Shown here: piece after piece, positions 15,016-43,271 of the stretch | Layout: each line of letters begins with the position of its first letter | How positions within the stretch are numbered: the stretch's first letter is position 1 | Source: a virus | Strand: one strand, 5' to 3' | DNA length: 64,000 nt | Virus record (IMG/VR): IMGVR_UViG_3300023179_000020 | Translations under genes and position numbers: made by a program | Notes under the pieces: model-generated | Told to the model about the DNA's origin: nothing | Seen by the model: the letters and a program-made list of their open reading frames with translations, nothing else | The model's database searches: none

Positions 15016-15813
15016 ATGATTAAACTAACTGATTTATTAAGAGAAGTTATAAATAACCCAAAAGCTATAATCATGGCTGGCGGTGCATCAGTTGGTAAAT
15101 CAACAGTACTAAAATCGTTACAACCCGTATTAAAAGGATTTGTAGACTTAAATGCTGACAAATATGTTGAAGATAAAGATTCTCCAATGTATGGTAATTT
15201 ATCTGCTGCCTCTGTTCAAATAAAAAAAACGGATTTACCTAACACTATTGACAACCAACAAAATCTTATTTACGACACTACAGCTTCTAATTTATCAACC
15301 CTTCAACCTACATTAGACATGTTAAATGATAAAGGGTATGAAATAATGATGATAATGGTTTATGCTCACCCCATAGTATCATTTTTAAGAAACTATAAAC
15401 GTGAACGTAAAGTACCAGCAGTTGGTGTTTTAGGAACATGGGTTAATGTTTATAATTTATTAGAAGAATATAAAAATATATTTGGTGATAATTTTGTATT
15501 AGTACATACACCTGCTAGTTCCGAAGAACAAACAGAAATAGATAATTTTGAATCTGCTTATCAACAGGGTACTTTAAAAGAATACTTCTCAGATCTATTA
15601 TCTTCAGGTCAATTTCAATCAACCTTTAGAAAAAGTGATGTTGGTTTATCACCTGAAGAATTAGAAAAACGAGAAAAAGACAGAGCCAAAACTAAAATTG
15701 TTTTAGAAAAAAACATAGATAAAATAGCTGATACATACGAGACTATTCAATCAAATCTAACCCCAGTTGATATGAAAGAATTGCCTAACATTGTTAAAAA
15801 TTTTGTTAGATGA
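15016..15813 (+). CDS. P-loop kinase (zeta-toxin/AAA_33-like) with MIKLTDLLRE leader
   Basis: Walker A MAGGASVGKST, LNADKY, IYDTT, R...RERKVP lid motif. Confidence 0.7.
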   Translation: MIKLTDLLREVINNPKAIIMAGGASVGKSTVLKSLQPVLKGFVDLNADKYVEDKDSPMYGNLSAASVQIKKTDLPNTIDNQQNLIYDTTASNLSTLQPTLDMLNDKGYEIMMIMVYAHPIVSFLRNYKRERKVPAVGVLGTWVNVYNLLEEYKNIFGDNFVLVHTPASSEEQTEIDNFESAYQQGTLKEYFSDLLSSGQFQSTFRKSDVGLSPEELEKREKDRAKTKIVLEKNIDKIADTYETIQSNLTPVDMKELPNIVKNFVR

Positions 15814-17618
15814 AATCATTAGTAAAATCACTTATAACACCGTTTTTAGCAGAAGTTGATATTCCTGTTCCAACTAAAACAATAGGTGTATTTGGAGGTG
15901 GGTTTCAACCACCAACAAAAGGCCATTTTGAAGTTGTTAAAAAAGCATTAGAATACCCTAACATAAACGAATTTAACATTTATGTTGGTACAGGTGGAGG
16001 CAGATCAGAAACAATTACCCAAGAACAATCAGTGGCAATTTGGAATATATATAAAAATTATTTACCTAGTATAGTAAATATTATTCCAACAGATAATCCA
16101 ATTACTTCAATTTATTCTTTAGCTAAAAATGAACCTGACACTCAAATCAAATGGTTTTTAGGGTCACGTGAAGGTAAAGAAGAAGATTTTGCTGATTTTG
16201 AAAAACGTACCAAATCTGCTTTAGGCAAAACAAATATTGAACCCATCAACATTATAACTTCAGATGGTATTAGTGGTACTAAAGCTAGAGCAGTATTAGA
16301 CGATAAAGAAAAATTATTTGCCTATTTGCCTGACATTGAAGAAACAGATAAAGAACAAATATACTCTATTCTACACCCAGTAGAAGAAGGAGAAGAAATA
16401 ACAAATTTTCTTGAAGAAAAAATTCAAGGTGATAGTATAGTTTGTGATAATTGTGGTTGGACATGGAAAATAGAGGATGGCGGAAACGATTTATTTATTT
16501 GTCACAAATGTGGACATGATAATACTCCTAAAAAAGAAACAACTAATTTCTTTGAACCATTACAAAACCAAGACATAGACATTAAAATATCTTCAGAACC
16601 TACTAGAGTTGACTATTATAAAGACCATATTAAAAATGTAGTACCATCTGATTTTAAAGTTGAAAAACATAAAGATAAAATAGTAGTTTCTAACATTTCT
16701 AAACCAGGACTAGAACATAACCCTGAATTTAAAGATAAATTAGTATCATTAACATTGTCTATGATAGATAATGGTATAAACATTGAACCGTTACCCGATT
16801 TAGTTTTTATAGAAGATGATAAGAAAAATGCAAACAACATATTAGGACGTACTGCTCATTATGACCCTAATAATAAATGTATTACTTTATACACTTATGG
16901 TCGTCATCCTAAAGACATATTACGTTCATACGCTCATGAAATGATTCATCACATGCAAAATCTTGAGGGTAGAATTCATGGTATTGAAGGACAAAACATA
17001 AATGAAGATGAATATCTAAAAGAATTAGAATTAGAAGCATATAGTAAAGGCAATATGTGTTTTAGAGGATGGGAAAATTCACTTAAAGAAAATATTAATG
17101 AATGGATTATTGATATTCCAAAATTTAATCAACCTAAAACATTTATAGATAATTTACGTGAATCTTTAAATGAAATTGTTTTGTCTAAAGAAAATGCAGT
17201 TGATATAGAGGGAAGTTTAACCGATGGACAATTTGTAGTAGGAGACCAAAAATATATTTATAAAATTAAAGAATTTCCAACACCTCCATATTACGACCCA
17301 GGTGTATTCTACAATATAGAATTTTATCCTGAAGGAAACATAAGTTCAGAACCGCAAGGAGGAAAAGAAAATTATGTAAAAATATTATCTACTATGTATA
17401 AAATAATAGTAGATTTTACTGAACAAGAAAAACCAAAATACATAGGTATTGCTTCTCTTGATAATGAAGGAAGCAAAAGTTACCATACAGTATATGCTAA
17501 TTTAACAGACAATAAATTTAACAGAATACCTGGATACTTTAGAAAAGATGTATCTTTAAAATTTGATGGGCCTAGGGGAAAAGGAAAAATGATAGTACTA
17601 AAAAGAAAAGATGATTAA
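15810..17618 (+). CDS. Multidomain protein: HIGH-type nucleotidyltransferase + Zn ribbon + HExxH metallopeptidase-like + C-terminal domain
   Basis: FGGGFQPPTKGH and ISGTKAR (cytidylyltransferase-like); CDNC...CHKC; SYAHEMIHH...E.EAY. Confidence 0.7.
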   Translation: MKSLVKSLITPFLAEVDIPVPTKTIGVFGGGFQPPTKGHFEVVKKALEYPNINEFNIYVGTGGGRSETITQEQSVAIWNIYKNYLPSIVNIIPTDNPITSIYSLAKNEPDTQIKWFLGSREGKEEDFADFEKRTKSALGKTNIEPINIITSDGISGTKARAVLDDKEKLFAYLPDIEETDKEQIYSILHPVEEGEEITNFLEEKIQGDSIVCDNCGWTWKIEDGGNDLFICHKCGHDNTPKKETTNFFEPLQNQDIDIKISSEPTRVDYYKDHIKNVVPSDFKVEKHKDKIVVSNISKPGLEHNPEFKDKLVSLTLSMIDNGINIEPLPDLVFIEDDKKNANNILGRTAHYDPNNKCITLYTYGRHPKDILRSYAHEMIHHMQNLEGRIHGIEGQNINEDEYLKELELEAYSKGNMCFRGWENSLKENINEWIIDIPKFNQPKTFIDNLRESLNEIVLSKENAVDIEGSLTDGQFVVGDQKYIYKIKEFPTPPYYDPGVFYNIEFYPEGNISSEPQGGKENYVKILSTMYKIIVDFTEQEKPKYIGIASLDNEGSKSYHTVYANLTDNKFNRIPGYFRKDVSLKFDGPRGKGKMIVLKRKDD

Positions 17619-18180
17619 ATTAACTGATTTATTAAAAGAAGTAGAAGATCAAAAATATACTATCTATTGTGACATGGATGGAGTATTAGTAGACTTTGAT
17701 AAGGGTTATAAGGATTTAACAGGAATGTCTACTAAAAAAGCTAATACGTATCCTAAAATGTTTTTTTGGAGATTTTTTAGAAAGAAATTAAAAGAAAAAA
17801 AAATGGATGAAAAAGATTTTTGGGCTAATTTAGAATCTTATCCTGGAAAAGAAGAATTATGGTCCTATATATCACCATACAAACCAAATATACTTTCATC
17901 CCCATCAATAGACTTTAAACTCCCTCCAAATCAACAACTTGACCCAGAGTATAATGAAGCTATTCAGGGTAAAAAAGCATGGATTTCAAATAATTTAAAT
18001 AATGTAAATAAAGAAATTTTTGTTCCTGCCTCTCAAAAACAACAATTTTCTGGCGAAAATAAAATACTTATAGACGATAGAGAAGACAATATAGAACAAT
18101 GGAAAAGTAAGGGAGGAATAGGTATCCTTCACACTTCTGCTTCTGACACAATTAAACAATTAAAAGAATTAAAATTATGA
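17611..18180 (+). CDS. HAD-family 5'(3')-deoxyribonucleotidase-like phosphatase with MIKLTDLLKE leader
   Basis: IYCDMDGVLVDF (motif I), ILSS, K, ILIDD...N..W...GG.GI. Confidence 0.8.
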   Translation: MIKLTDLLKEVEDQKYTIYCDMDGVLVDFDKGYKDLTGMSTKKANTYPKMFFWRFFRKKLKEKKMDEKDFWANLESYPGKEELWSYISPYKPNILSSPSIDFKLPPNQQLDPEYNEAIQGKKAWISNNLNNVNKEIFVPASQKQQFSGENKILIDDREDNIEQWKSKGGIGILHTSASDTIKQLKELKL

Positions 18181-18518
18181 AAAAATCACAATTACAACAG
18201 ATTATTAAAGAAGAAATTCAAAAAGTATTAAATGAAAACAAAGCTAATGATTTAAAAAATTTTATTAAAACAAATAAAGAAGAAGTAATAAACCAATTAA
18301 ATCAAAGAGAAAAAAAGAACAAAGACGCTAAAACCATTGATTTTAACATAATATATACTAAAGGAGACAAGGTTTATGCGGAGAGAGATTATCTTCCTAT
18401 TGGAGAAACAAATAAAGAAAATACAAGTCTAGATGAAATATCATTTAGTAAAACTACAGGTAAATACGAAATAACAGTATATGGACAAATATTGAAATAT
18501 TCAATATATAATATATAA
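18177..18518 (+). CDS. Hypothetical protein with MKKSQLQQIIKEEIQKVLNE leader
   Basis: Leader nearly identical to the internal segment at 36806. Confidence 0.65.
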   Translation: MKKSQLQQIIKEEIQKVLNENKANDLKNFIKTNKEEVINQLNQREKKNKDAKTIDFNIIYTKGDKVYAERDYLPIGETNKENTSLDEISFSKTTGKYEITVYGQILKYSIYNI

Positions 18519-18549
18519 ATACTAATACAAGATTAGAAAAATTAGGATT

Positions 18550-19008
18550 ATGAATAAATATAGTTTAGTAAAATTAATGGAGAATGAAGAAGATGGAACA
18601 TCTAAAAGATTAATTCTTAAAAAAAATTTATTATTAATACCTAAAACAAAAACAGCAGAAGAATTTTTAAAAATTATTAATGATCCTAAAAATACAAAAG
18701 GAGTATTTGTAAAAATCAATACTGATTTATATAATGGGTATTTTGGTCCTCCTGGTCCTCCAAATGTAAAACAAAAATTAGAAAGAGAAAGAGGAGAACC
18801 ATTTCCTCCTAAAACCTCAGATAATATAGAAAAATTCAAAACTGGTTCAAAAGATTTAGGAGCCCAAATACAAGGAAAAAATATTATTTTTACTACTAAT
18901 GAATTTACTACTATTAATTCTATTAAAGGAGATTTAGAAAAAATACTTAAAAATGCTAATTTAGAAAAAGGAACAGATTATACTTTATTAGAAAAAGAAG
19001 CCATATAA
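18550..19008 (+). CDS. Hypothetical protein
   Basis: 152-aa ORF in the co-directional gene run. Confidence 0.55.
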   Translation: MNKYSLVKLMENEEDGTSKRLILKKNLLLIPKTKTAEEFLKIINDPKNTKGVFVKINTDLYNGYFGPPGPPNVKQKLERERGEPFPPKTSDNIEKFKTGSKDLGAQIQGKNIIFTTNEFTTINSIKGDLEKILKNANLEKGTDYTLLEKEAI

Positions 19009-19009
19009 T

Positions 19010-19579
19010 ATGCCAGAAAATGTTCTAAAAAAAGAGTTCCAACAAAAGGACGTACAACGCCTCCGTAACCTAATGACAGGTAAATATGGTGAAAAAACCA
19101 TTGTTGGAACAGGTTATACTAAACAACAAGAATTTCATGAAGAAGGTGAAATTTGGGAAGAAGATGGAAGACAATGGACCATCAAAAATGGTATCAAACA
19201 AAACATTACTAAACTGGATAAAGCAAAAGAATCAATCCATTTACCAATGTTTTGTCCTTGTTGTAGTAATTTAATGAAACCCCACCTTGATAAACGTTTT
19301 TATTTACAATATAAAAGGTGTTTTAATTGTCAGGTTGATTTTGAAACCGAATTAAAAATTAAAGGTTTATGGAACGATTATGAAAAACATATCATCAATT
19401 CAGACATTGATGGTATAACACAAGAATTTAATATATGGATGGACGAAGAAATAAACGAGTCTAATACATCATACATTACAGAAGCTGGAGACGTAGAACG
19501 TTGGGTAGGTTCTTCAAAACAAAAACTGTTAGAAAGTAAAGAAGAAACAATTAAATACTTACAAAGTTTAAAAAAATAA
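19010..19579 (+). CDS. Zinc-finger-containing hypothetical protein
   Basis: CPCC...CFNC. Confidence 0.6.
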   Translation: MPENVLKKEFQQKDVQRLRNLMTGKYGEKTIVGTGYTKQQEFHEEGEIWEEDGRQWTIKNGIKQNITKLDKAKESIHLPMFCPCCSNLMKPHLDKRFYLQYKRCFNCQVDFETELKIKGLWNDYEKHIINSDIDGITQEFNIWMDEEINESNTSYITEAGDVERWVGSSKQKLLESKEETIKYLQSLKK

Positions 19580-19601
19580 ACCATATTTATTATAAAAATA
19601 T

Positions 19602-19964
19602 ATGGAATTTTCTAAGTTTATATCTTACCTATTTCATTCAAGAACCCAAACCCACATATTTCATTTACAAACACCTTCATTCGCCGAGCATATTGCTTTA
19701 CAAGCATACTATGAAGGAATTGTTCCTTTAATTGATGGTTTAGTAGAATCATATCAGGGTAAAAACGGTATAATTAATGATTATACCAATTTTAATTTAC
19801 AACAATACCAAGGTAAAGACCAAGTAATAGCATACTTGGATATGTTGTGTAAAGCAGCATACCAAGTGAGAGAAACAATTGAAGATAGTTACTTGCAGAA
19901 CCAAATTGATACTATAACTGAATTAATTAAATCAACTATTTACAAACTAACATACTTACAATAA
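19602..19964 (+). CDS. Ferritin/Dps-like four-helix-bundle protein (DUF5856-like)
   Basis: H.FHLQT.SFAEH.AL..YY.....LID.LVE.YQG metal-ligand pattern. Confidence 0.7.
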   Translation: MEFSKFISYLFHSRTQTHIFHLQTPSFAEHIALQAYYEGIVPLIDGLVESYQGKNGIINDYTNFNLQQYQGKDQVIAYLDMLCKAAYQVRETIEDSYLQNQIDTITELIKSTIYKLTYLQ

Positions 19965-19965
19965 C

Positions 19966-20214: not shown

Positions 20215-20236
20215 TATTTATCACAAATCATTAATA

Positions 20237-20596
20237 ATGGAAAACAAATTACGTATCCTAATAAATCAACTTGTTAAAGAAGAGTTATCGATTTTTGAAA
20301 AAAAACTTAAAAAAGACGAAGAACCTCCTGTTGACGACGTTGAATTAGACCTTAGTGCTTCTGAAGAAACACCTGCTGAAGCTCCTTCTACCGATATGCC
20401 TTCAGTTGAGCCAAGCATGGACATGGGAGGTGGAGAATCAGTTGAAAAACGTATTGGGCAACACTTACAACAAGCATTAGACGCTGCTCGTGAAATGCCT
20501 GAAAGTGAAAATAAAAATAAATTGATAAGACAAATTGGAAACACAGCTTTATTCTTCCTGAAAACCCAAATTCCGGTTGATGGAGGACAAGCTTAA
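20237..20596 (+). CDS. Hypothetical protein with helical leader and acidic Pro-rich linker
   Basis: MENKLRILINQLVKEE leader; TATTTATC motif upstream. Confidence 0.6.
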   Translation: MENKLRILINQLVKEELSIFEKKLKKDEEPPVDDVELDLSASEETPAEAPSTDMPSVEPSMDMGGGESVEKRIGQHLQQALDAAREMPESENKNKLIRQIGNTALFFLKTQIPVDGGQA

Positions 20597-20619
20597 TATT
20601 AACTAAATAAATTAAATCT

Positions 20620-20793: not shown

Positions 20794-20804
20794 CCAAAAA
20801 CAAC

Positions 20805-22048: not shown

Positions 22049-23026
22049 ATGAATATGTTTGACAAATTTTTAAATAGTATTTCTCATAAATTCCCTAAAG
22101 GATATCCTGACATGAATAATGAACAGGATATTTTATTGTTAGAAACTTTAATAAATAAAGTGTTAGGTGAAAATGTAAAATTAAATGAAATGGGAATTTT
22201 AACTGAAAACGATAATTCATATGATGATTTAATAAAATTATCTTTAAAAGTTAAAACAATCCCAAAATGCCAAACTCCCTTAGTTGTAGGCAAATCATTT
22301 TCTTTAACAGGAAAAGACGCTAAAATATGGGCTAGTCTATACTCAATTAAACCTTTAAAAGCAGATGGTACACCAACCGCAGGTTCAGGAAATGGAGAAG
22401 TGGCTACATATTGGGCTTATCAACATAATATAAAACCAATAAGTACTCAAGATGGTAGAGGAGGAGACAATCCCGATTTAATTATTAGTGGAATTGGAGT
22501 TGAAGTTAAAGCATATGACACTTCAACTATTACTTTAGGTAAATTTAAATCTGATGGAGAAAGTGTAAGTTTATTAAATAGAGTATTTGGAGTTTTAACT
22601 TTATTTGGTGAAGAAGATACTAAAGCTAATGCAGGTGGATTTAAACCTCAAGATTTATTAAACAGTTTTACTATAATATCAAGTGTGTATAATAATAAAG
22701 AATTAAGATCTTTATCTGTTACTCAACCATTTTTTGTTAAAATAGATAATTTGTATAAAGAATTAGGATTAGAATCTAATCCCACCCCAAAACAAGCTAC
22801 TGTTGCTTTGTTACGTAAACTTTTATGGAGTAAATTAATTAAAAAACCTAATAAAAATCAAGAAGTAGGATACATTTTAAATGTTGCTCTTAACGGAGCA
22901 GGAGAATATACTAAAATTACTAAACAAATAATAGATAGTATACCTGATGATAGTTTTATAAACAACGGAGTTACAGTTAAATCTTCTGAAATACAAATGA
23001 ATTTTAATCAATTATTCAAATCATGA
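22049..23026 (+). CDS. Putative PD-(D/E)XK (restriction-like) nuclease behind an N-terminal leader
   Basis: GNGEVA...NPDLIISGIGVEVKAY fits an E...PD...EVK catalytic pattern; leader FPKGYPD...LNE. Confidence 0.5.
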   Translation: MNMFDKFLNSISHKFPKGYPDMNNEQDILLLETLINKVLGENVKLNEMGILTENDNSYDDLIKLSLKVKTIPKCQTPLVVGKSFSLTGKDAKIWASLYSIKPLKADGTPTAGSGNGEVATYWAYQHNIKPISTQDGRGGDNPDLIISGIGVEVKAYDTSTITLGKFKSDGESVSLLNRVFGVLTLFGEEDTKANAGGFKPQDLLNSFTIISSVYNNKELRSLSVTQPFFVKIDNLYKELGLESNPTPKQATVALLRKLLWSKLIKKPNKNQEVGYILNVALNGAGEYTKITKQIIDSIPDDSFINNGVTVKSSEIQMNFNQLFKS

Positions 23027-23703
23027 AACAACGCCTCCTAGAAATAATAAAAAAAGCATTAACAGAACAACCCAAAAAGAAAAAATGCGATTGTGGTTGT
23101 AATGAATGTACTAGTGCTCCTTTATTAAACGAATCTAAACAATACAACATGGCTATTTCTGAAAACATGAGATACCATTTAGACAACAAGATTCAAATCC
23201 ATGACAACATTTTCAGACCAGGCTCAAAATCACACATTGAACTGATTCATGAAGCTCGTTTGTTATGGAAAAAAGAAATTATTGAATTAAAAGAAACTGA
23301 TAAACATTTATTTGAAAACACAGATTTAGGTCGTTTTGGAATGTATGAAGGTGAGGTGGTTCCACTTGATTATCCAATGATGGAAATTGAAACTTTAACA
23401 GAAGCTGAATTAGAAGAAGAAAAGAAACAACCTGCTTTAGGTAAACCAAAACGTGGTGGTTCTAAAAAGTTTTATGTTTATGTTAAAGATCCTAAAACCA
23501 AGCGTATTAAAAAAGTATCATTTGGTATGGCAGGTGGTGGATTAAGAGCAAAACTTAATAATCCTAAAGCACGTCAAGCGTTTTCAAAAAGACATGATTG
23601 TCCTAATAAAAAAGACAGAACAAAGGCGTCGTACTGGAGTTGTGCATTGCCCCGTATGGCTAAGCTACTAGGGTTCAAAACCACTTACACAGGGTATTGG
23701 TAA
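23023..23703 (+). CDS. Modular hypothetical protein with a basic C-terminal domain
   Basis: Leader ..ALTE, CDCGC..C, LNE, LTE/LEE; basic domain KKFYVYVK...KKVSFG...AF..RH.C...YWSC. Confidence 0.65.
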   Translation: MKQRLLEIIKKALTEQPKKKKCDCGCNECTSAPLLNESKQYNMAISENMRYHLDNKIQIHDNIFRPGSKSHIELIHEARLLWKKEIIELKETDKHLFENTDLGRFGMYEGEVVPLDYPMMEIETLTEAELEEEKKQPALGKPKRGGSKKFYVYVKDPKTKRIKKVSFGMAGGGLRAKLNNPKARQAFSKRHDCPNKKDRTKASYWSCALPRMAKLLGFKTTYTGYW

Positions 23704-24376: not shown

Positions 24377-24760
24377 ATGAAACTAACACACATACTCCTT
24401 CAACTTCTTTTAGAAAAAAAAGAAGACAGATGTAAACGTATTGCTGATCGCAAATACGATAAACCATCTGCTTATAAATCAGGTGCAATTGTTAGATGCC
24501 GTAAGGGTGAAATTTGGAAAGATTTAAAAGAGGATGAATTAACTGAAAAACAAAAAGAAACCCTCCGCACCTGGTTCAAACGTAAAGGTGCTCCTGGTAA
24601 AACAGGTGGGTGGGTAGACTGTAATACTTGTAGAGACGGTAAATGTAAGCCTTGTGGTAGAAAAGAAGGAGAAAAACGTGCTAAATACCCTTCATGTCGC
24701 CCCACACCATCTCAATGTAAAACACCTGGCAAAGGCAAAAAATGGGGAAAAACAAAATGA
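24377..24760 (+). CDS. Basic Cys-containing hypothetical protein with MKLTHILL..LLE leader
   Basis: Start reassigned to ATG 24377; PSAYKSGAIVRCR and WF...WVDC...CGR...YPSCRP modules separated by LKE/LTE. Confidence 0.6.
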   Translation: MKLTHILLQLLLEKKEDRCKRIADRKYDKPSAYKSGAIVRCRKGEIWKDLKEDELTEKQKETLRTWFKRKGAPGKTGGWVDCNTCRDGKCKPCGRKEGEKRAKYPSCRPTPSQCKTPGKGKKWGKTK

Positions 24761-26052
24761 TTAAACTAACTAACATATTAAAAGAAATATTATTAACTGA
24801 ACTTAACAAGCAACAGTTAGATAGTATAGCTAAAGCATTAGGTGCTGAACGTACTAGTGAATTTGATAGTAAATTAAATTCATTAAATGCTAAGGGTATG
24901 ACTTACCCTGATATTTTAAAACAAGTTAAAGATGGTGTATCTCAAGGAAAATCTCCTGAAGAAATTTTTAGTAGCTTATCATCAACAGTAGGTAAATCTT
25001 CTAAAGATCTAGAATCAGATTTTGAAACTATAATTGATAATGAAAATATTATAGTACAAGTACCTCATACCCACGCTGCATCTCGCAAATTAGGCTTATC
25101 TACCTACGCTTATAGAGTATGTAAAGATGGCAGCAAAGATTCAGCCTGGTGTACCACTTATAAAATCCCAGATCATTTTAGAATTTATTACCATGATCAA
25201 AACAAAACTCTCTATTATATAAAAGTTAAATCTCCTGAAATAATACAACAATTAAAAGACAAGGGTTTGGCATCTTTAGTTGTATCAGCAGTTGTTGTTA
25301 ATGACAAAAATAATATAAGTGTTATATTTGATGGAAAAGATAAAGATATCCCATCTAATTGGTATCCCGCGTATCTAAAAATATTAGGACTTGATAAATC
25401 AATATTTGTTAATAAACGCTCTAAAAAAGAACGAGATTTAGCATTAAGTAGCGCTCAACTTGAACAGATGAAATATTATATTAAAAATGGAAGTAAAGGT
25501 CCACTAGAGATAGTAAAACTAGACTCTGAACTTCCTAGTGATTTAACTTTAGTTGGAGGTGATTTAAAATTAATTGCTTCTAAAATAACTAAATTACCTG
25601 ATAATTTAGTAGTTAAAGGTAAACTTATTATATCCCAATGTCCAAATATAACAACCATTCCTGAGGGTATAAAATATAAATCTCTAGCGTTATTTAGATG
25701 TCCTGCTATAACCTCTATTTCTAAACCTAAAAATAAAATAGAAGATTTAACTATAGATGATTGTCCCTCATTTACTGAACTTCCAAAAGGTATAAAAGCA
25801 AAATATATAAGAATTCAACAATGCCCACAATTCTCTAAATTACCTGATAATCTTACAAGTTCAACTGTAGATATTCGAAGTTTAAAAGTAAGTGAGATGC
25901 CTAATAATCTTAAAGTATATAGATTTCTATTAGCTGATACTCCTTTAGCTAAAAAATATGAATATGATGGGAATCAAATTATTAAGGCAATTCAAGATAA
26001 AGGTGGTGAAATAGTAAATTTTTCTTCTTTTAAACTTAATATAGTGATGTAA
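24757..26052 (+). CDS. Protein with MIKLTNILKE leader, WCTT (PcfJ-like) domain and LRR-like C-terminus
   Basis: SAWCTT...F..YY....LYYI; repeats IT.LP.NL.V / CP.IT.IP.GI. Confidence 0.6.
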   Translation: MIKLTNILKEILLTELNKQQLDSIAKALGAERTSEFDSKLNSLNAKGMTYPDILKQVKDGVSQGKSPEEIFSSLSSTVGKSSKDLESDFETIIDNENIIVQVPHTHAASRKLGLSTYAYRVCKDGSKDSAWCTTYKIPDHFRIYYHDQNKTLYYIKVKSPEIIQQLKDKGLASLVVSAVVVNDKNNISVIFDGKDKDIPSNWYPAYLKILGLDKSIFVNKRSKKERDLALSSAQLEQMKYYIKNGSKGPLEIVKLDSELPSDLTLVGGDLKLIASKITKLPDNLVVKGKLIISQCPNITTIPEGIKYKSLALFRCPAITSISKPKNKIEDLTIDDCPSFTELPKGIKAKYIRIQQCPQFSKLPDNLTSSTVDIRSLKVSEMPNNLKVYRFLLADTPLAKKYEYDGNQIIKAIQDKGGEIVNFSSFKLNIVM

Positions 26053-26309: not shown

Positions 26310-28930
26310 TGAAAAATATACATAAGTTTATAGCATACGTTGTTTATAATTGGGGTTATCCTTTAAATGAAGATGAAATAAAGCTTGATAGAAACAGACA
26401 AAAGTTTTTTGATAAATTTAAAGTAGATGCTAATGATTTAAACATTAATATTACAGATGAACAATTAAAAACATACATTCAACGTTTTGACCAGTTAAAA
26501 AATTCATCTAAAGTTACTGAAAAGGACTTACATAAATACTCTTTATCTAAATTAATACAATTAGTTACTTCATCTGCTGGAGCAGACATGCCTGAACAAG
26601 CAGATATTACTCCTGACGTTGTTTATAATAATGATAATAATACTATTGTAATTTATAATGGTAGTAAAGAAGGCAACTGTATTAATTTTGGTCAAGGTGA
26701 AAGATGGTGCATAACTAGAGGCTCTTATGGTAATTACAGGTACGATGCTGATAGAGGCTTTCCTACATTTTATCTTGCTAAAAATACTAATTTACCTAAT
26801 ACTGATAAATTAAGTTTTGTTGCTATACAGGTTAGAGATACATCTGATGAAAATAAAAGGTACGTTTATACTAATAGACAGAATAGCCCATATGAGTCTA
26901 ATGCTATGTCTTTTAATAAATTAGTATCTGAGGTTCCTTGGCTTAGTGAAGTGCCTAATCTTAGTAATGTTTTAAGATATATCCCTTTAACTAGTAATGA
27001 GAAAATAACTCAAACATATAAAAACAAAGCTGCTACTTATAGAGAATGGACTCAATTCTCATTTGAAATGAAAAAACAATATCTAGTAGCCAGAAAAAAC
27101 CAATCAGAATTTTTTTCAGATATTAGTGATAATGAATTTGTAAGTACTTACCTTCCAGATTATCCACAAATAGCTGAATTTATTGCTTTAAACAATGATA
27201 TTATTGAAGATGAAGTTTTATTAAAATATTTAGATAAATTCTCTAACCAAGATAGAAGATCTATCATGGCTAACATGAGAACAAATGTGTCTTTAAAATA
27301 TTTAGATAAACAAACATTTTCATTTGACATTAAAAAATTATTAGTTAAATTAAATAAATGGAATCTTAGTAACAACGAAAGAATATATGTTACTAAAAAT
27401 GGTGAAGCTATAATTTTATTAACTTTAGACGACGATTTAAAAGTAGGAGTATACACAGAAGATGCTGATTATCCAAATATTAAACTTAATAAACGTACTT
27501 CTAAATTTTTAGCAGACTATCCCGAAATAGACACTATTCCTTTTAGGTATCTTTTAAAATTAGCATCTCAAGAAGCTATTGATAAATTAATTATCAATAA
27601 GGTTATAGAAAAAGCTAAAGAAGACCCAAACTCGGCTATAATAGTAAAAGACACAGAAGATGGACAAATATTAGTTGATTCTAATAGTTTTAATTCTTAT
27701 AAAATTAAAGATGATTCTATAACACCTATACCTTTTGATAGTGAAGAAGTTCAAAGAGTCCTTAATTCTGAAGGATCAGAAGAAAATGAAGGTATTCAAA
27801 ACAACATTTTACAATTATTTGGAAGTGGTATTCCTAACACTATAGACAAAACTACATTTGTTAATCTATTAAAAAATATTCCAATTAACAATAGAATAAC
27901 AACTGTAAGAAATATAGATTATGTAGTTATGTTAGATGATGAAAATGAAGAAATATTATTAATAGATAATAGGGAATTATCAACATCATTTAGAGCTCAA
28001 TTTCATTATAATCTTAATAGAACAAATTGGAGAGAATCACCGGGTTTAACTAATTTTGCTAGTAGTCTTGAAGTTCTTAGAGAATATTTTGAATATGCAA
28101 GAACAAAAGGATGGGCATATCAAGGTGATGAAATTATAGGTGCTATAAATAGTCAATATAATCGAAGTTATAAACAAAACATAATAGCCGCTAATCCACC
28201 ATTAGGTGAAAGATGGATGGCTGTAGTAGTAGAAGACAAATACATTTTATTAAACCGAATTAACCCTAGAAACAGTAAATTTATATCCAACACTTCAGGT
28301 AGATTAATCAATTATAATTTTCCTCCACGTGCTGCTGCTCAATACATTGGAGGACAAGCAAATGCTGCAACAACACCACCTGGTGCTGAAGAAAGAGAAT
28401 TAGCCCCTCTTAGAAGACCAGGAAGACCAGCTGGTGGTGGAACACCTAGACAAGCTCCAGCCGCCGCCGCGGCAAATCCAGATGTTACAGCCATGATTGA
28501 ACAATTTGGATTAACAGCAGGCTTTAATACCTTACCCCAAAATGTACGAAATGTAATATCTTCAGGACAAATCCTTGGTAGATTTGCAGGTGATAGAGGT
28601 GCATCTCGTAGAAACAATTTATTAAGACAATATGGAGGACAAGTTTCAAATACAATTGAATCAGGTAATTCTAAACTTTATATTATTCGTTTAAGAAGTG
28701 GAGCATACATAGGATCAGCAGTTTTTCAACCTGGTAATCAACATTACATAGTTACTACAAATTCTTCCTTTAGAATACCAAGTCCCGATGATCTTGTAAC
28801 ACAACTAAGAACACGTAACATAAACGAAAATGCAAAAGTAATGTTAGCGTTGCATGCTGAAGCAGATCCTGAATCAATGAATGAATTGAGACAAAAATTA
28901 ACTAATATTTATAAAAAACCAACATCATGA
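26309..28930 (+). CDS. Large hypothetical protein with WCIT (PcfJ-like) domain
   Basis: 873 aa, GTG start; G.RWCITR...Y..Y...TFY; RRPGRP AT-hook-like linker. Confidence 0.6.
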   Translation: MKNIHKFIAYVVYNWGYPLNEDEIKLDRNRQKFFDKFKVDANDLNINITDEQLKTYIQRFDQLKNSSKVTEKDLHKYSLSKLIQLVTSSAGADMPEQADITPDVVYNNDNNTIVIYNGSKEGNCINFGQGERWCITRGSYGNYRYDADRGFPTFYLAKNTNLPNTDKLSFVAIQVRDTSDENKRYVYTNRQNSPYESNAMSFNKLVSEVPWLSEVPNLSNVLRYIPLTSNEKITQTYKNKAATYREWTQFSFEMKKQYLVARKNQSEFFSDISDNEFVSTYLPDYPQIAEFIALNNDIIEDEVLLKYLDKFSNQDRRSIMANMRTNVSLKYLDKQTFSFDIKKLLVKLNKWNLSNNERIYVTKNGEAIILLTLDDDLKVGVYTEDADYPNIKLNKRTSKFLADYPEIDTIPFRYLLKLASQEAIDKLIINKVIEKAKEDPNSAIIVKDTEDGQILVDSNSFNSYKIKDDSITPIPFDSEEVQRVLNSEGSEENEGIQNNILQLFGSGIPNTIDKTTFVNLLKNIPINNRITTVRNIDYVVMLDDENEEILLIDNRELSTSFRAQFHYNLNRTNWRESPGLTNFASSLEVLREYFEYARTKGWAYQGDEIIGAINSQYNRSYKQNIIAANPPLGERWMAVVVEDKYILLNRINPRNSKFISNTSGRLINYNFPPRAAAQYIGGQANAATTPPGAEERELAPLRRPGRPAGGGTPRQAPAAAAANPDVTAMIEQFGLTAGFNTLPQNVRNVISSGQILGRFAGDRGASRRNNLLRQYGGQVSNTIESGNSKLYIIRLRSGAYIGSAVFQPGNQHYIVTTNSSFRIPSPDDLVTQLRTRNINENAKVMLALHAEADPESMNELRQKLTNIYKKPTS

Positions 28931-29196
28931 AAATTAACGAACTAAAACAAATCATCAGAGAAGAAATTGAAAAAGTATTAGCTGAAGCACCAATACGTGA
29001 AGAGGAAACACCAACACGTAAAAAGGAAGCACCAGTAAAACCAACAACTACACCTTCTCAACCAACAACTACACCTTCTCGAACAAAAAGACCTGGACCT
29101 GGTATAAAAGAAAAACCAAAAGCTGAAAAAACAGCTGAAAAAATAGCTGAAAAAATAGGAAATAGGTATAGCAAAATGCTTAAAAATAAAAAGTAA
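28927..29196 (+). CDS. Small protein with MKINELKQIIREEIEKVLAE leader
   Basis: Leader, Pro/Thr-rich linker and basic tail. Confidence 0.6.
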   Translation: MKINELKQIIREEIEKVLAEAPIREEETPTRKKEAPVKPTTTPSQPTTTPSRTKRPGPGIKEKPKAEKTAEKIAEKIGNRYSKMLKNKK

Positions 29197-32078: not shown

Positions 32079-32729
32079 ATGCAAGTAGAAAAATTACGTA
32101 CTCTTATAAGAGAATCTATCAACGAATATATTAGAGAAATTGAACAAGCAGCTAATGAAGCAGCTGTAGATGCTAGTATCACTAAATGTGAAGAAGCAAT
32201 CCAATCACGTCAAGAAAGACTAAATAAGATTAATGAAAATGATGATCTTAAAGAAATGGTTGATGAAACTAAAGTAAAAAATATTCAAGCCGAAATTAAA
32301 ATTTTAGAGAAAGCTAAGAAAAAATACGCTGCTCAAAAAGCTAAAATGCAAGCTAAAAAGGATAAAAAAGCAAATCCTGAAAAAGAAGTAACTACTGATG
32401 CTCCTATTGATGAAGCTGATGTAACAGCTGAAATGAACATGCCTGACAATACACAAGAAGAAGCATTAAACGAATCTTTTATTCGTATGCAAAAACTTGC
32501 AGGTATTATTAATGAAAATAAAAGTAAAATAGAAACAATTTTGAGTAAAATAGGTGATATTGAAGAAAAAATATATGATCAATATGGTGACGATGAAATA
32601 GAAGCTAAATTTGATTATAGTAAAGCTATAGATGATATTAAATCAAAATATAAAAATGACGAAAGTGGAATGTATGATGCTTTAATATCTCATTTAAAAA
32701 AACTAAAATCAACATTCCCAATAAAATAA
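32079..32729 (+). CDS. Coiled-coil protein carrying both leader types
   Basis: N-terminal KLRTLIRESINE; internal LNESFIRMQKLAGIINE. Confidence 0.65.
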   Translation: MQVEKLRTLIRESINEYIREIEQAANEAAVDASITKCEEAIQSRQERLNKINENDDLKEMVDETKVKNIQAEIKILEKAKKKYAAQKAKMQAKKDKKANPEKEVTTDAPIDEADVTAEMNMPDNTQEEALNESFIRMQKLAGIINENKSKIETILSKIGDIEEKIYDQYGDDEIEAKFDYSKAIDDIKSKYKNDESGMYDALISHLKKLKSTFPIK

Positions 32730-35740: not shown

Positions 35741-36271
35741 ATGAAGATAGGACTATGTGGAACAATGAGTGTTGGCAAATCAACACTAGTACATGCTTTA
35801 AAAGAATTACCTGAATTTAAAGATTATTTCTTTGCTACTGAACGTAGTAAATACTTACGTGATTTAGGTATTCCATTAAACACTGATAGTACATTAAAAG
35901 GTCAAACAATATTCTTAGCTGAACGTTGTTCTGAACTAATGAGAGAAAATGTTATTACTGATAGAACAATTATCGATGTGATGGCTTTTACTCAATGTGC
36001 CAAGTCAATTTGTCAAGATGATAAAAATGCATTTGTTAAATATGCTGCTCCATTTATTTGGGACTATGATTATGTTTTTTATGTGTCTCCTATTGGTGTA
36101 AAAATTGAAGATAATGGTGTTAGAGAAACTAATGCTGATTATCGTGAATTAATTGATTTTACTATAAAAAGCACAATACATGAACATTTAAATCAAATTA
36201 AAAATCTAGCATTCATTTCAGGCACTACTGAAGAAAGAATTAAACAGATTAAAGGTTACTTAGGTTTCTAA
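35741..36271 (+). CDS. P-loop NMP-kinase-like protein (NadR/Ttd14 AAA_28-like)
   Basis: IGLCGTMSVGKST, ITDRT.ID, YD.VFY, EDNGVR. Confidence 0.75.
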   Translation: MKIGLCGTMSVGKSTLVHALKELPEFKDYFFATERSKYLRDLGIPLNTDSTLKGQTIFLAERCSELMRENVITDRTIIDVMAFTQCAKSICQDDKNAFVKYAAPFIWDYDYVFYVSPIGVKIEDNGVRETNADYRELIDFTIKSTIHEHLNQIKNLAFISGTTEERIKQIKGYLGF

Positions 36272-36298: not shown

Positions 36299-37084
36299 AT
36301 GAAACTATCTGAATTAAGAAAACAAATAGAAGATACTATTACGGAGATATTAACTATTACTCCCGGATCTAACGCTATGGATGTAAAAAATGCGGCTAGA
36401 CAAAAAGGAGTACCACAAGCTGCGGTAACCTCAGCATTACAACAAGCTAATACCTCTGGACAATCAGTGACATTAACTGGAAAAGTAGCTGAATCAGACG
36501 AAGACGTAGAAGATACTTATGGTAAAGAAGATGAAGATGATAAAAAAGATGCTAAAATAGCTAACGCTAAGCCATCAAAATCAGATTTGAAAAAAAATGC
36601 TAGTATAGCTACTATAACAGATGCTATAGCTAAATTAGTTATAGATCGTAAAAATGTTAATGAAAAATATAAGAAAGCCGAAGGTAAAGAAAAAGCAAAG
36701 TTGTTAGATGAATTAAAAGACCTAACATCTAAAATACAATCATTAGATAAAATTCTTAAAGAAAAAGAGAAAACTCTTAAAGAAAATAATTTAAAAACCA
36801 AAACTATGAAAAAATCACAATTGCAACAAATCATTAAAGAAGAAATTCAAAAAATTTTAAAAGAAGCAAAAGAAATTAAAGTTGATATATACAGTGCTGA
36901 GACTATAACTTTAAATGGAAAACCCCTAGACTCAGACAAAATGAATAGCACTAAATATAGAAATATGCTTTTATCACAACCTGATAAAGCATTTATGTAT
37001 AAAGGAAAACCCGTCTCTCTTGACGCTATTGATCCAGCTGATGGTTCACAAGATGATCCAAAAATTTATTTAAGAGCTGATTAA
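36299..37084 (+). CDS. Hypothetical protein, apparent fusion of two leader-tagged modules
   Basis: MKLSELRKQIEDTITE leader; second leader MKKSQLQQIIKEEIQKILKE starting at ATG 36806. Confidence 0.6.
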   Translation: MKLSELRKQIEDTITEILTITPGSNAMDVKNAARQKGVPQAAVTSALQQANTSGQSVTLTGKVAESDEDVEDTYGKEDEDDKKDAKIANAKPSKSDLKKNASIATITDAIAKLVIDRKNVNEKYKKAEGKEKAKLLDELKDLTSKIQSLDKILKEKEKTLKENNLKTKTMKKSQLQQIIKEEIQKILKEAKEIKVDIYSAETITLNGKPLDSDKMNSTKYRNMLLSQPDKAFMYKGKPVSLDAIDPADGSQDDPKIYLRAD

Positions 37085-37122: not shown

Positions 37123-38694
37123 ATGTCTCAAGACTTAAAACAAATAATACGAGATGAGTATGTAAAGTGTTCAAAAGATCCGGCGCACTTTATGAAAAAA
37201 TACTGCCACATCCAACACCCAACTCGTGGTAGAATTATATTCAATCTTTACCCATTCCAAGAAAAAGTATTACGTTTATGGAGAGACAATCCATATAACA
37301 TAGTACTCAAATCCAGACAATTAGGAATTTCAACCTTAACTGCTGGTTATTCATTATGGTTAATGTTGTTTCAAAAGGATAAAAATATCCTTTGCATTGC
37401 TACTAAACAAGAAACTGCTAAAAACATGGTTACAAAGGTAAAATTCATGTTTGAAAATTTACCTTCTTGGTTAAAAGTACCTGCAGATGAAAACAATAAA
37501 CTAACACTTCGACTTAATAATGGTTCTCAAATCAAAGCAGTTTCAGCAGCAGGTGATGCGGGTCGATCAGAAGCAGTATCACTCCTAATAATAGACGAGG
37601 CTGCCTTCATTGACGGAATTGGTGAAATATGGGCTTCTGCTCAACAAACCTTAGCAACTGGTGGTGGAGCCATTATATTATCAACTCCATTTGGTACTGG
37701 TAATTGGTTTCATCAAACATGGGTAAGAGCAGAAGCACAAGACAATGACTTTTTACCAATCAAATTGCCTTGGTATGTTCACCCTGAACGTGATGAAAGT
37801 TGGAGAAAAAAACAAGACGAATTATTAGGAGACCCAAGATTAGCAGCACAAGAATGTGACTGTGACTTTAATACTTCAGGTGATACTGTGTTCTACAATG
37901 AACAATTAGATTTTATTTTAGCAACGTCTATTAAGGATCCCTTGGAAAAACGTGGAATTGATCATAACTTATGGATATGGGAATTACCCGATTATACAAG
38001 AAACTATATGGTTGTTGCTGACGTTGCTCGTGGGGATGGAAAAGACTTTTCAACATTTCACGTAATAGACGTTGAAACAAATACACAAGTTGCTGAATAC
38101 AGAAGTCAACTTTCACCAAAAGAATTTGGTTATTTGTTAGTAAGCATTGCAACAGAGTATAATGATGCATTGTTAGTTGTTGAAAACGCTAACATAGGCT
38201 GGTCAACTCTTGATGCAATTATAGAAAGAGGATACAGAAATTTATACTATTCTCCAAAAACTGAAGCATTAAACGCTGAATCATACTTAGAAAGAACAGA
38301 TGACCCATCAAGAATGGTACCTGGTTTTACAATGTCTATGAGAACAAGACCATTAGTCATAAACAAATTCAGAGAATACATAGGAGACAAAAGTGTAAAC
38401 ATACAGTCTCGTCGTTTATTTGAAGAAATGAAAGTGTTTATTTGGAAAAATGGTAGACCTGAAGCACAATCTGGTTATAATGATGATTTGGTTATGAGTT
38501 TTGCAATTGGAATGTATGTTCGTGATACAGCTTTAAAATTTAAAACCCAAAACCTAGACTTAACCCGAGCTGCTTTAAAAAACATAGCAACAGTTAGACA
38601 AAACCCTCAAGGTAACTATACAACTAATGGTCAAGCAAATCCTTACCAAATGAATATTAATGGAAGGAATGAGGATATTAGTTGGTTACTATAA
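37123..38694 (+). CDS. terL: Terminase large subunit (T4 gp17-like)
   Basis: LYPFQ, KSRQLGIST (Walker A), LLIIDEAAF (Walker B), STPFG, VADVARGDG.DFS and NDDLVMS nuclease motifs. Confidence 0.95.
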   Translation: MSQDLKQIIRDEYVKCSKDPAHFMKKYCHIQHPTRGRIIFNLYPFQEKVLRLWRDNPYNIVLKSRQLGISTLTAGYSLWLMLFQKDKNILCIATKQETAKNMVTKVKFMFENLPSWLKVPADENNKLTLRLNNGSQIKAVSAAGDAGRSEAVSLLIIDEAAFIDGIGEIWASAQQTLATGGGAIILSTPFGTGNWFHQTWVRAEAQDNDFLPIKLPWYVHPERDESWRKKQDELLGDPRLAAQECDCDFNTSGDTVFYNEQLDFILATSIKDPLEKRGIDHNLWIWELPDYTRNYMVVADVARGDGKDFSTFHVIDVETNTQVAEYRSQLSPKEFGYLLVSIATEYNDALLVVENANIGWSTLDAIIERGYRNLYYSPKTEALNAESYLERTDDPSRMVPGFTMSMRTRPLVINKFREYIGDKSVNIQSRRLFEEMKVFIWKNGRPEAQSGYNDDLVMSFAIGMYVRDTALKFKTQNLDLTRAALKNIATVRQNPQGNYTTNGQANPYQMNINGRNEDISWLL

Positions 38695-38702
38695 TATTTA
38701 TG
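38695..38702 (+). promoter_or_regulatory. TATTTATG late-promoter-like motif before portal
   Basis: Directly after the TerL stop, 19 nt before the portal ATG. Confidence 0.55.
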
Positions 38703-38721
38703 GTAAATAATACAATTTATA

Positions 38722-40611: not shown

Positions 40612-40649
40612 CATTTCATACATATTTATAACTAAAATATTAGCCAAGA

Positions 40650-41504
40650 ATGGTAATTAAACATTCAAAGTACAAAAATACTGGGATCCTTTTTGAACTA
40701 CTTGTTAGACAAATTACAGCTGATACTTTATCAGGTGATGCTTCCCCAGCTACTACCATTTTAAAAAAATACTTTACTAAAACTGAATTAGGAAGAGAGT
40801 ATAAGTTGTATGAAAGCTTTTTTAAGCATACTAATATTAGTGAGGCTAAAGCTGATATGGTTATAACAACTCTTGTTGAAAGTTCAAAGTATTTAAACCG
40901 TTCTATACTAAAAAGACAAAAATATAATTTGATTAAAGAGATTAAGGCGCATTACAATTTAGAAGAGTTTTTTAAAACTAAACTTCCTAATTATAAAGCA
41001 CAAGCCGCTTTATTTACTCTTTTAGAAGTGTATAACAGTGAAAACTTATCCAACCCAAATCAAATTATAGAAAATAAAACCGCGCTTTTAGAATTTTTAA
41101 CTAAAGGACCTATTAACAAAACAGAAGTTAAAAACAATATTTTAGAAGAATTTAAACATCAAGATAAAGATATTCGTGTTTTAGCATATAGAGTACTACT
41201 TGAAAAATTTAATGACAAATACTCAAATTTAAATTCAAACCAAAAAATCATATTAAAAGAATTTATAAACAGTGTTGATAATACTCCCAAATTAAAAGAA
41301 TTTTACAACACTAAAGTATTTGAAATTAAAACCCAATTATCAGTACTTAACAAATCAGTTTCTAACCCTGCCACTAAAATAAAAATCAACGAAGTAATAA
41401 ATATTTTACCTGTTTTAAGCAAAAACGACAGAATTAATGATGACCAATTAGTAAATCTTTTACAATACTGTGAATTGATAGAAGAATTAAAAATTGTAAA
41501 ATGA
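40650..41504 (+). CDS. Conserved head-morphogenesis-region protein
   Basis: KHSKYKNTGILFELLVRQIT N-terminus; lies between portal and protease. Confidence 0.55.
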   Translation: MVIKHSKYKNTGILFELLVRQITADTLSGDASPATTILKKYFTKTELGREYKLYESFFKHTNISEAKADMVITTLVESSKYLNRSILKRQKYNLIKEIKAHYNLEEFFKTKLPNYKAQAALFTLLEVYNSENLSNPNQIIENKTALLEFLTKGPINKTEVKNNILEEFKHQDKDIRVLAYRVLLEKFNDKYSNLNSNQKIILKEFINSVDNTPKLKEFYNTKVFEIKTQLSVLNKSVSNPATKIKINEVINILPVLSKNDRINDDQLVNLLQYCELIEELKIVK

Positions 41505-42004
41505 ATAAAAAAGACCAAATACGTGAATTAATTCAAAAGCGTTTAAAAGAAATAAGCGCTACAGGCACTGGTGCTTCTTTTACTGCTGGTACTGGTGCTA
41601 ATTATGCTACACCTAATGCTTTTAATCCAAATAAAAAGGCTAAAGGTGCTAAAAACATTTATTATTACAAATTAGGATTCAAACCAGTAAACCAAAAAGC
41701 TTTAAATAAAAAGGCTAAAGGCATTGAAGTAAAACATTTGTGGGAAGAAGAAACACCTAAATTTGACATTGAAGGATTTGTAAGTGCTTTACAAACTGAT
41801 AATGAAGAATTAAAAAAATACATAGCAGGACGTTTAGGAGACTTTGATTTACTTGCTAGCAAATTAAAAGAACTTATTGAATTAATACAAGAAGCTAAAA
41901 AAGAAACAATAAACAGTTACAGAGAAAATCCTGAATTTAAAGCTGTTTATGGTACAGATTTAGCAATTTCATTAATAGACGACACTATAAAACTATTTAC
42001 ATAA
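41501..42004 (+). CDS. Putative prohead core protein with leader
   Basis: QIRELIQKRLKE leader, then SATGTG..YATP.AF. Confidence 0.5.
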   Translation: MNKKDQIRELIQKRLKEISATGTGASFTAGTGANYATPNAFNPNKKAKGAKNIYYYKLGFKPVNQKALNKKAKGIEVKHLWEEETPKFDIEGFVSALQTDNEELKKYIAGRLGDFDLLASKLKELIELIQEAKKETINSYRENPEFKAVYGTDLAISLIDDTIKLFT

Positions 42005-42005
42005 A

Positions 42006-43271
42006 ATGAGAAATACATTACAAGAACAATATAACCTTATTAAAGAAGGTAAAGGTAATAAACAGCAATTTTTTAAATCTGCTCGTCATTTATTCCCTAA
42101 TTTAATTACTCCTGTTAACACATTAAATGATGCTGTTACCATCCTTAAAAACAAAGGTATCATTAGTGAAATGTTTGTAGGAGGAGGTGTAGTTACTAAA
42201 GGTAAAACACCTGATTGGTTTTCTATTTTTAAAGAAAACATAACTGAGTATGGAGAAGACTCAGGTGGACAAGATATGACATACGGAATGTATAATAGAT
42301 CATCAGCCCGTAAAAATCAAGGCATTCAAGACTTTATAAATAAAGGAAAAGAAGATTATTATGATGATGTACCATATGAAGCATGTCCATATGAAGATGG
42401 TTATAATAAATATTATAAAGCAGATTTAGCTAAATTATGGCAAATGGGATGGAAAGAAGCAGAAATATCAAGCAATGAAGAAAACATAACTGAATTATCA
42501 GGAAAATTTGGTTCTAAAGAAGAAGTTACCGTTATTAATAATAAAACTGGTAAAAAAGCTAAAGCAATGATTACCAGCACATCAATGAGTACAGGTACAG
42601 GAATAGAATATAATCTTAAATATTCTGGTGAAAAACCAAATGGATTCCCAGACACTATAAAAGATGATGATTTAGACTCAACATATTCTTTAAAAAGATT
42701 AACTGAAGCTAAAGAAGCTAAAGCTGAAGAAAAAGAAACTACTAAAGAAGTAACTGACATGGCAACACGTGGTTACGACTATAAAGACACTAAAAACATT
42801 GATAACATTTTTGGTACTGCGTTTTTAAAAGGATTCTATAGTGAAATGCAAGATCCAAAAAACGAGGACAAAACAGTTGAAGAATTAAAACAAATCGTAG
42901 CTAAAAATTTAGCTAAAGACTGTTTACACTATGTTAAAAACAGCCCATTTGGTGTTGAAGGAGCTGGTTATTCAGTAGAAGCACCTGGATTAGGCGAACC
43001 AAAACCTGCTAAAGGTAAACACAAATCTTCAGGTTATGGTGATTTAAAAGAATCAGTTTTACGTTCTCAAATTCATTTGTTAGTAAAAGAAGTATTAGCT
43101 GAAAGTAAAATTAGTGAAGATCAATTTGAAAAAGCACTTAAAATGCATAAAAAAGGCAAATCACCCGAAAACATAGCTAAAGAATTAAAAATTGATCCGG
43201 TTATATTAAAAAACCAACTAAAAAAATACAAAGAAGAAAAAGAAAATTTAAAAACAAGTGATAAGGGCTAA
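42006..43271 (+). CDS. Modular putative head-core protein
   Basis: Segments delimited by IKE, ISE, ITE, ITE, LTE, LKE, LAE; located just before the protease. Confidence 0.55.
   Translation: MRNTLQEQYNLIKEGKGNKQQFFKSARHLFPNLITPVNTLNDAVTILKNKGIISEMFVGGGVVTKGKTPDWFSIFKENITEYGEDSGGQDMTYGMYNRSSARKNQGIQDFINKGKEDYYDDVPYEACPYEDGYNKYYKADLAKLWQMGWKEAEISSNEENITELSGKFGSKEEVTVINNKTGKKAKAMITSTSMSTGTGIEYNLKYSGEKPNGFPDTIKDDDLDSTYSLKRLTEAKEAKAEEKETTKEVTDMATRGYDYKDTKNIDNIFGTAFLKGFYSEMQDPKNEDKTVEELKQIVAKNLAKDCLHYVKNSPFGVEGAGYSVEAPGLGEPKPAKGKHKSSGYGDLKESVLRSQIHLLVKEVLAESKISEDQFEKALKMHKKGKSPENIAKELKIDPVILKNQLKKYKEEKENLKTSDKG

Follow-up and report, generated by a model that had tools for sequence, protein, structure and literature searches.

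The 64,000-nucleotide (nt) viral record IMGVR_UViG_3300023179_000020 from IMG/VR (the whole stretch of DNA analysed, hereafter the window) is a segment of about 30% guanine plus cytosine content from an uncultured aquatic phage with a T4-type head, in which the + strand holds nearly every gene. Between positions 15016 and 43271, unrelated proteins of this phage carry one of two short leaders: leader A, of 10 amino acids (aa), with the consensus MIKLT[DN][IL]LxE (at 15016, 17611 and 24757), and leader B, of 20 aa, with the consensus MKKSxLxQIIKEEIxKVLxE (at 18177, 28927 and 36806). These leaders are genuine N-terminal tags, modular and specific to viruses. They are probably capsid-targeting propeptides of the type known from phage T4, which would be cleaved by the prohead protease encoded at 43274.

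Two families of portable N-terminal leaders

The original prediction for this region listed 13 leaders, and all 13 were found at the coordinates given (Table 1). The set is heterogeneous, with three canonical A leaders and three canonical B leaders; those at 24377, 36299, 32079, 20237, 23023 and 41501 and an internal segment of the 42006 gene are leader-like only. A degenerate DNA pattern for leader A gave three matches in the window compared to none in 100 shuffles, and the leader-A profile matched at N-termini only. Leader B was searched with a hidden Markov model (HMM) trained solely on IMG/VR B leaders from other phages, which recovered the copies at 18177, 28927 and 36806 (E 4e-13 to 9e-10). 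When a strict pattern consisting of an amphipathic helix plus [LIVMF]xE was applied to the first 24 aa and to internal 24-aa segments, it was found in 13 of the 35 N-termini of the region compared to 16 of 320 internal segments (5%; odds ratio 11, p = 2e-7), and in 2 of the 34 + strand proteins outside the region.

The distribution of the tags was followed in IMG/VR by scans with degenerate DNA patterns for A and B, with at least 119 loci per scan. Both motifs stood at the start of an open reading frame (ORF) in every match listed, with leader B beginning 5 or 7 residues ahead of its core motif, at an ATG. The cargo proteins behind the leaders fell into at least 56 clusters for A and at least 99 for B, mutually without detectable similarity, which makes at least 155 clusters in this partial sample. 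B cargos are often tiny (median 111 aa). The isoelectric points of the cargos were the same as those of other proteins, and gave no support for basic, DNA-binding internal proteins.

Tags are also exchanged among orthologs, as those of 17611, 23023, 21519, 35204 and 24377 bear A, B, RMQ-type or no leader. The NT5C protein 17611, with leader A in the window, has other leaders in Flavobacterium phage vB_FspM_immuto (hereafter immuto) and in the IMG/VR phages L083 and L117, and none in G001 and L209; in two phages the leaderless NT5C orthologs start at the domain itself (MDAIYCDMDG and MYTIYCDMDG). The 23023 family was found with an A leader (L164), with a B-like leader (L071) and without leader (L079 and L207), in other phages an A or a B leader precedes the C-terminal domain of 21519, and orthologs of 24377 show a canonical MIKLTDILKE immediately ahead of the DRCxRIA domain. 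The 35204 cargo, with an RMQxLAG tag in the window, has leader A in L052, so that the RMQxLAG tag seems to be interchangeable with leader A. This tag was observed at the C-terminus of the scaffold-like protein 45215-46324 (..ARMQQLAGLKK), and the proteins 30782, 31598, 35204 and 44610 begin with ..RMQxxAGIITE, also ending in I-x-E.

As originally proposed, the recognizable domains begin after the Glu of the leader, the Zeta_toxin/P-loop kinase from aa 13 and NT5C from aa 18 (profile position 4). That the leader belongs to the NT5C fold was rejected on the basis of this profile start and of the existence of leaderless orthologs. Leader A gave two matches in 596 gigabases of cellular genomes, one of them spurious and the other on a phage-like contig of a metagenome-assembled genome. 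As cellular genomes lack leader A, it is not an integral part of the cellular homologs, in agreement with the original prediction. Leader B was not found by pattern or profile in Syn9, S-PM2 and P-SSM2, which are cultured phages with published virion proteomes. Among cultured phages, its profile matched only immuto (E 7.7e-5), with a weak signal in HTVC008M. In immuto, the B-type leaders are borne by immuto26A_176, 177, 191 and 199.

Some of the leader genes have a more complex organization. The ATG at 24757 overlaps the stop of the upstream gene and corresponds to codon 6 of the longest ORF, which starts at 24742. ORF 36299-37084 combines a loose N-terminal leader with a full B leader at aa 170, as a two-module 'polyprotein', and upstream-open leader genes resembling it were observed in the IMG/VR loci L301, L300 and L262. 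In the 32079 protein, aa 18-117 match an internal part of the p42006-family head proteins of other phages (L186, L192 and L013), and for this reason 32079 may be a spun-off head-protein module.

Table 1. Leaders, leader-like segments and head-module features of the window. A slash marks the predicted cut site.
Feature	Position	Strand	Remarks
Leader A, MIKLTDLLRE	15016..15045	+	Gene 15016-15813, Zeta_toxin-like P-loop kinase; Pfam domain from aa 13; ATATTTAT at 15004
Leader A, MIKLTDLLKE	17611..17640	+	Gene 17611-18180, NT5C/HAD 5'-nucleotidase
Leader A, MIKLTNILKE, plus second site ILLTE	24757..24801	+	Gene 24757-26052, 431 aa
Degenerate leader A, MKLTHILLQLLLE	24377..24415	+	Gene 24377-24760, DUF5872
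Leader B, MKKSQLQQIIKEEIQKVLNE	18177..18236	+	Gene 18177-18518; HMM E 4e-13
Leader B, MKINELKQIIREEIEKVLAE	28927..28986	+	Gene 28927-29196; HMM E 4.5e-10; ATATTTAT at 28905
Internal leader B, MKKSQLQQIIKEEIQKILKE	36806..36865	+	Met at aa 170 of ORF 36299-37084; HMM E 9e-10
Leader-like N-terminus, MKLSELRKQIEDTITE	36299..36346	+	ORF 36299-37084; weak match; L079 ortholog begins MKKSELKKYI
Leader-like N-terminus, MQVEKLRTLIRESINE	32079..32126	+	Gene 32079-32729; retained in orthologs
Leader-like N-terminus, MENKLRILINQLVKE	20237..20281	+	Gene 20237-20596; weak match
Leader-like N-terminus, MKQRLLEIIKKALTE	23023..23067	+	Gene 23023-23703, CxxC cargo
TerL	37123	+	T4-type head module
ATATTTAT motif before the portal gene	38694..38701	+	Others at 15004, 20214, 28905, 32048, 36271 and 40622
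Portal_T4	38722	+	T4-type head module
Head-module protein p41501, leader	41501..41551	+	MNKKDQIRELIQKRLKE/ISATGTGASF; gene between portal and protease
Head-module protein p42006 (42006-43271), N-terminal LIKE/G site	42006..42047	+	LQEQYNLIKEGKG; kept in orthologs
Internal leader-like helix of p42006, aa 352-366	43059..43103	+	LRSQIHLLVKEVLAE; seen only in this sequence
Prohead protease, T4 gp21 family (Peptidase_S77, PF03420)	43274..43882	+	Pfam E 1.7e-30
Acidic scaffold-like protein, gp22 position	45215..46324	+	26 [LIV]xE sites; C-terminal end ..ARMQQLAGLKK
Major capsid protein, Gp23 family	46363..48096	+	Predicted maturation site QLVVE60/TSQTG

Predicted cleavage motif, protease and head module

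The conservation of the leaders was analysed over the cargo clusters. In leader A, L4, I/L7 and L8 are near-invariant over the 56 clusters, position 9 is free (K, N, L, S, T, Q and others) and position 10 is Glu in 47 of them; in the matches obtained without prior selection for Glu, this residue was present in 59 of 83. Leader B, for which the search pattern fixed positions 6-14 only, shows L18 in 40 of 51 and E20 in 43 of 51, with a variable position 19 and without consensus past E20. Each canonical leader ends in a predicted cleavage motif of the T4 gp21 type, which is its last conserved feature.

In T4, gp21 cleaves after L/I-x-E, and the first 10 residues of IPIII are enough to target the capsid, through positions 4 and 7, while positions 8 and 10 are involved in processing (PMC9026906). 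Exactly 10 residues are removed from the T4 protein gp24, and short N-terminal peptides from IPI-III and Alt (PMC9958956). The corresponding decapeptides in the T4 record are MAKINELLRE for gp24, MELITELFDE for Alt and MKTYQEFIAE for IPII/IPIII. That of gp24 is identical to MIKLTDLLRE at 6 of 10 positions, with shared length and register, and when the marine A-leader profile was run on 49 kb of T4, the gp24 N-terminus ranked third among 30,446 positions and first among those initiated by Met.

The protease at 43274 is 34% identical to T4 gp21. The His of GELxHP, the Ser of GVSSRG and the Asp are aligned in both proteins and the N-terminal LIE is conserved. The 43274 protein is a bona fide S77 enzyme. 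The capsid protein keeps an [LV]-x-E where T4 gp23 is cut (QLVVE60/T in the window, LVTE/A in G001 and LLKE/S in G020). The segment of the major capsid protein (MCP) that comprises the end of the delta domain, the cut site and the N-arm (46480-46599, ..ENQAKQLVVE/TSQTGTGATFTVGTG) resembles the N-terminus of p41501 (41501-41608, ..IRELIQKRLKE/ISATGTGASFTAGTG; tblastn E 0.004). In other lineages, B-type leaders open small genes located between the portal and the capsid protein.

The nearest cultured relatives of the phage are immuto (68% nt identity across TerL and portal) and Microcystis phage Mel-JY01, together with Rhodothermus phage RM378 by its capsid protein. The S77 protease was present in all four leader-A records at least 90% complete, in 6 of 9 fragments 27-41% complete and in all five large leader-B contigs, and the sole complete record without protease had only a false leader match (MIKFTNFFKK). 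To this can be added the IMG/VR loci picked by the tag alone, of about 9 kb each, in which TerL, portal, 40650, protease and MCP were counted as head genes: among the loci listed, 95 of 198 A loci (48%) and 47 of 119 B loci (39%) included a head gene, compared to about 12% expected, and the commonest conserved neighbours of leader genes were TerL, at the top, portal, 40650 and protease. Therefore, the clade is characterized by a variable cargo island upstream of TerL.

A gp24-like vertex paralog was considered as the anchor of leader A and rejected, as neither the window nor the complete relative G001 contains one. Searches in PHROGs and a protein atlas gave no match for 40650, 41501, 42006, the scaffold or most of the cargos.

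The motif ATATTTAT appears 30 times on the + strand and 9 times on the - strand of the window, with about 24 of the 30 + strand copies located 5-50 nt upstream of a start. The original prediction had leader genes preceded by a late-type motif, and as regards position this holds: ATATTTAT precedes 15016, 20237, 28927, 32079 and 36299, as it does the portal, 40650 and the tail genes. The leader genes may thus be expressed 'late', as suggested by a promoter-like motif in common with structural genes. The homing-endonuclease genes 12668 and 23746 also lie directly downstream of ATATTTAT. They belong to a series of GIY-YIG/SegE-type genes in the window (12120, 23746 and 54469, also 12668 and 34263). 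In the PhoH gene 48178-50010 (610 aa), a LAGLIDADG_3 domain (aa 289-366) precedes the PhoH domain (aa 436-605), and this insert looks like an intein or a homing-endonuclease insertion.

Proposed role of the leaders and alternative explanations

Under the propeptide reading, the leaders would act as short amphipathic helices that dock the tagged protein on the scaffolding core during prohead assembly. The protease 43274 would cut the leader at its terminal [LIV]-x-E, behind the Glu, as it would also cut the capsid protein at QLVVE60/T and the core proteins p41501 and p42006, and the released cargo would remain in the head. What we infer is that the tagged proteins bind the core, are cleaved, stay in the virion, enter the host together with the DNA and act as effectors.

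The region also encodes predicted enzymes. A Zeta-like kinase, an NMNAT-like nucleotidyltransferase (GGGFQPPTKGH) and the NT5C nucleotidase are encoded within 15016-18180, and an AAA_28 (NadR-type) kinase within 35741-36271. HTVC008M and the Melnitz phages share the conserved kinase/NMNAT/NT5C module, which appears as a single fused protein in the IMG/VR loci L134, L038 and L007. Together with the AAA_28 kinase, this set possibly serves the salvage of nicotinamide adenine dinucleotide (NAD) and nucleotides.

A broader proposal, which we hold tentatively and with more doubt than confidence, is that a widespread aquatic T4-like clade including the relatives of immuto, Mel-JY01 and RM378 may use a code of two or three interchangeable tags to load the capsid with far more than 100 unrelated protein families of fast turnover, among them ready-made enzymes for nucleotide/NAD salvage, which would be co-injected with the DNA as a counter-defence and takeover proteome far above that of T4.

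Several points weigh against the cleaved-propeptide reading and its extension to injected enzymes. The link with the S77 protease is partly phylogenetic, because all the carriers belong to one broad clade. The residue that follows the Glu of leader A (P1') is I, V or L in 32 of 56 clusters, and the T4 sites read A, S, D or G at this position. The exact cut site is uncertain, as the leader helix often extends to a second [LIV]xE. A bare [LIV]xE is present in 24% of the internal 16-aa segments of these AT-rich proteins. The N-terminus of TerL, MSQDLKQIIRDEY (37123-37170), is B-like, yet it belongs to the TerL fold and is retained as such in immuto and G001. As such loose matches occur, the leader motif by itself is not diagnostic. 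In Pelagibacter phage HTVC008M the kinase/NMNAT/NT5C module sits among replication genes, with N-termini that are poor leaders or have no Glu, so that a cytoplasmic role is equally possible for these three enzymes. An AlphaFold2 model of 17611 from the single sequence had a mean predicted local distance difference test (pLDDT) score of 48, too poor to judge if the leader is detached from the domain. Finally, the literature was searched for virion proteomics of immuto, Mel-JY01 and RM378, and none turned up.

Among the alternatives, one accepts that the tags target the prohead and are cut, and differs in the nature of the cargo, which would consist of assembly, core or head-only components that are degraded, expelled or retained, with no delivered effectors. 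The T4 proteins gp67, gp68 and gp22, which share these sites, are degraded, leaders are found on the conserved head-module genes p41501 and p42006, 32079 has a domain in common with the p42006 family, and many B cargos are tiny. However, the extreme diversity and turnover of the cargos (at least 155 clusters), the gain and loss of tags in orthologs and the presence of enzymes such as the kinase and NT5C fit accessory cargo better than structural parts, and we consider this alternative unlikely.

Similarly improbable is that the tags dock the proteins on, or are recognized by, a different partner common to them all. This could be a chaperone, an enzyme that modifies them, a membrane site or a complex of replication or metabolism, and the Glu would then be a feature of the helix and not a cut site. 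The substrates of the module enzymes are plainly cytoplasmic, and the frequently hydrophobic P1' of leader A would be in line with such a role. Nevertheless, no maturase candidate was found by Pfam between 15 and 43 kb, and the commonest conserved neighbours are the TerL, portal, 40650 and protease genes. Moreover, the free P2 next to the invariant Glu at P1, at the boundary between conserved and variable sequence, agrees with the gp21 rule, and the tags resemble peptides that are cleaved in T4.

The leader could also be mainly a DNA-level module, that is, an AT-rich unstructured translation start and cassette junction spread by recombination, whose peptide has no function. The leaders at 15016 and 17611 differ at just 2 of 32 nt, and codon choice is somewhat biased at positions 6 and 7. 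In the leader-A DNA ATGATTAAA, each of the two alternative frames has a stop (TGA in +1 and TAA in +2), and in 39 of 186 leader-A genes, among the IMG/VR loci listed, the first 9 nt contain the end of an upstream ORF that is at least 60 aa long. Against this explanation, the peptide is kept while its synonymous codons vary widely, roughly as in the gene background, which points to selection on the peptide. Leader B is conserved through 20 residues, with three synonymous differences between the copies at 36806 and 18177, and a DNA-level module does not account for the conservation of L18 and E20 around the free position 19. A mainly DNA-level role is very unlikely. As an observation in its own right, the leader-A start ATGATTAAA constitutes a ready-made coupling or cassette junction at 15016, 17611, 24757 and in IMG/VR loci.

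It is also hardly probable that the loose examples (20237, 23023, 32079, the N-terminus of 36299 and the internal helix of 42006) are ordinary helices of E/K/L/I-rich proteins matched by chance, as their B HMM E values above 1, the frequency of [LIV]xE in internal segments and the TerL analog integral to its fold would have it, given the 11-fold enrichment at N-termini and the fact that orthologs of 23023 and 24377 have a canonical leader, A or B, in this position.

Novelty and comparison with known systems

The mechanism of targeting and cleavage is already known from T4. New are the tags as such, the fact that several tag families coexist and are exchanged, the scale and turnover of the cargo set, and the clade. 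A literature search of about 8.4 million papers and preprints gave no published description of the leader motifs, and for capsid-targeting sequences (CTSs) in cyanophage or marine contexts it gave T4 reviews only. If the tags work as in T4, the delivery of proteins from the capsid would be a major, modular and fast-evolving weapon system of abundant environmental phages, and not just a peculiarity of the T-even and jumbo phages. In that case, the tags would allow hundreds of candidate injected proteins, likely with anti-defence or takeover roles, to be picked from viral dark matter by their sequence, and phages that infect Bacteroidota and other aquatic hosts could be loaded with foreign proteins through the 10-aa and 20-aa peptides as ready-made handles.

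Polyvalent proteins of phages and plasmids (PMC5512222) hold several effector-like modules per polypeptide, which are thought to be delivered and processed, and ORF 36299-37084 likewise has a full leader between two modules. The comparison covers this one ORF. Unlike polyvalent proteins, the leader cargos are mostly single small proteins with a tag of their own. The giant phages phiKZ, 201phi2-1 and SPN3US also have a gp21-related protease, head-internal proteins cut after Glu and a large protein cargo. They differ in the motif (S/A-X-E) and in propeptides mostly longer than 100 residues without one shared short tag, whereas the leaders described here are short, shared and portable.

The closest parallel is found in the CTSs and propeptides of IPI/IPII/IPIII, Alt and gp24 of T4 (Mullaney & Black 1996, reviewed in PMC9026906, PMC9958956 and PMC5694885), which likewise are tags of 10-20 residues at the extreme N-terminus. 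In both cases there are hydrophobic residues at positions 4, 7 and 8, an L/I-x-E at positions 8-10 and one tag on unrelated proteins, and the leader phage resembles T4 in its gp21-family protease, Gp23-type capsid protein and T4-type portal. The putative leader system differs from that of T4 in its often hydrophobic P1', in the lack of a gp24 vertex paralog and in cargos that include predicted enzymes of nucleotide and NAD metabolism. In addition, it has two or three interchangeable tag families in one phage (A, B and RMQxLAG), and, compared to the four or five cargos of T4, dozens of cargo families per lineage, which amount to at least 155 in the partial sample analysed.

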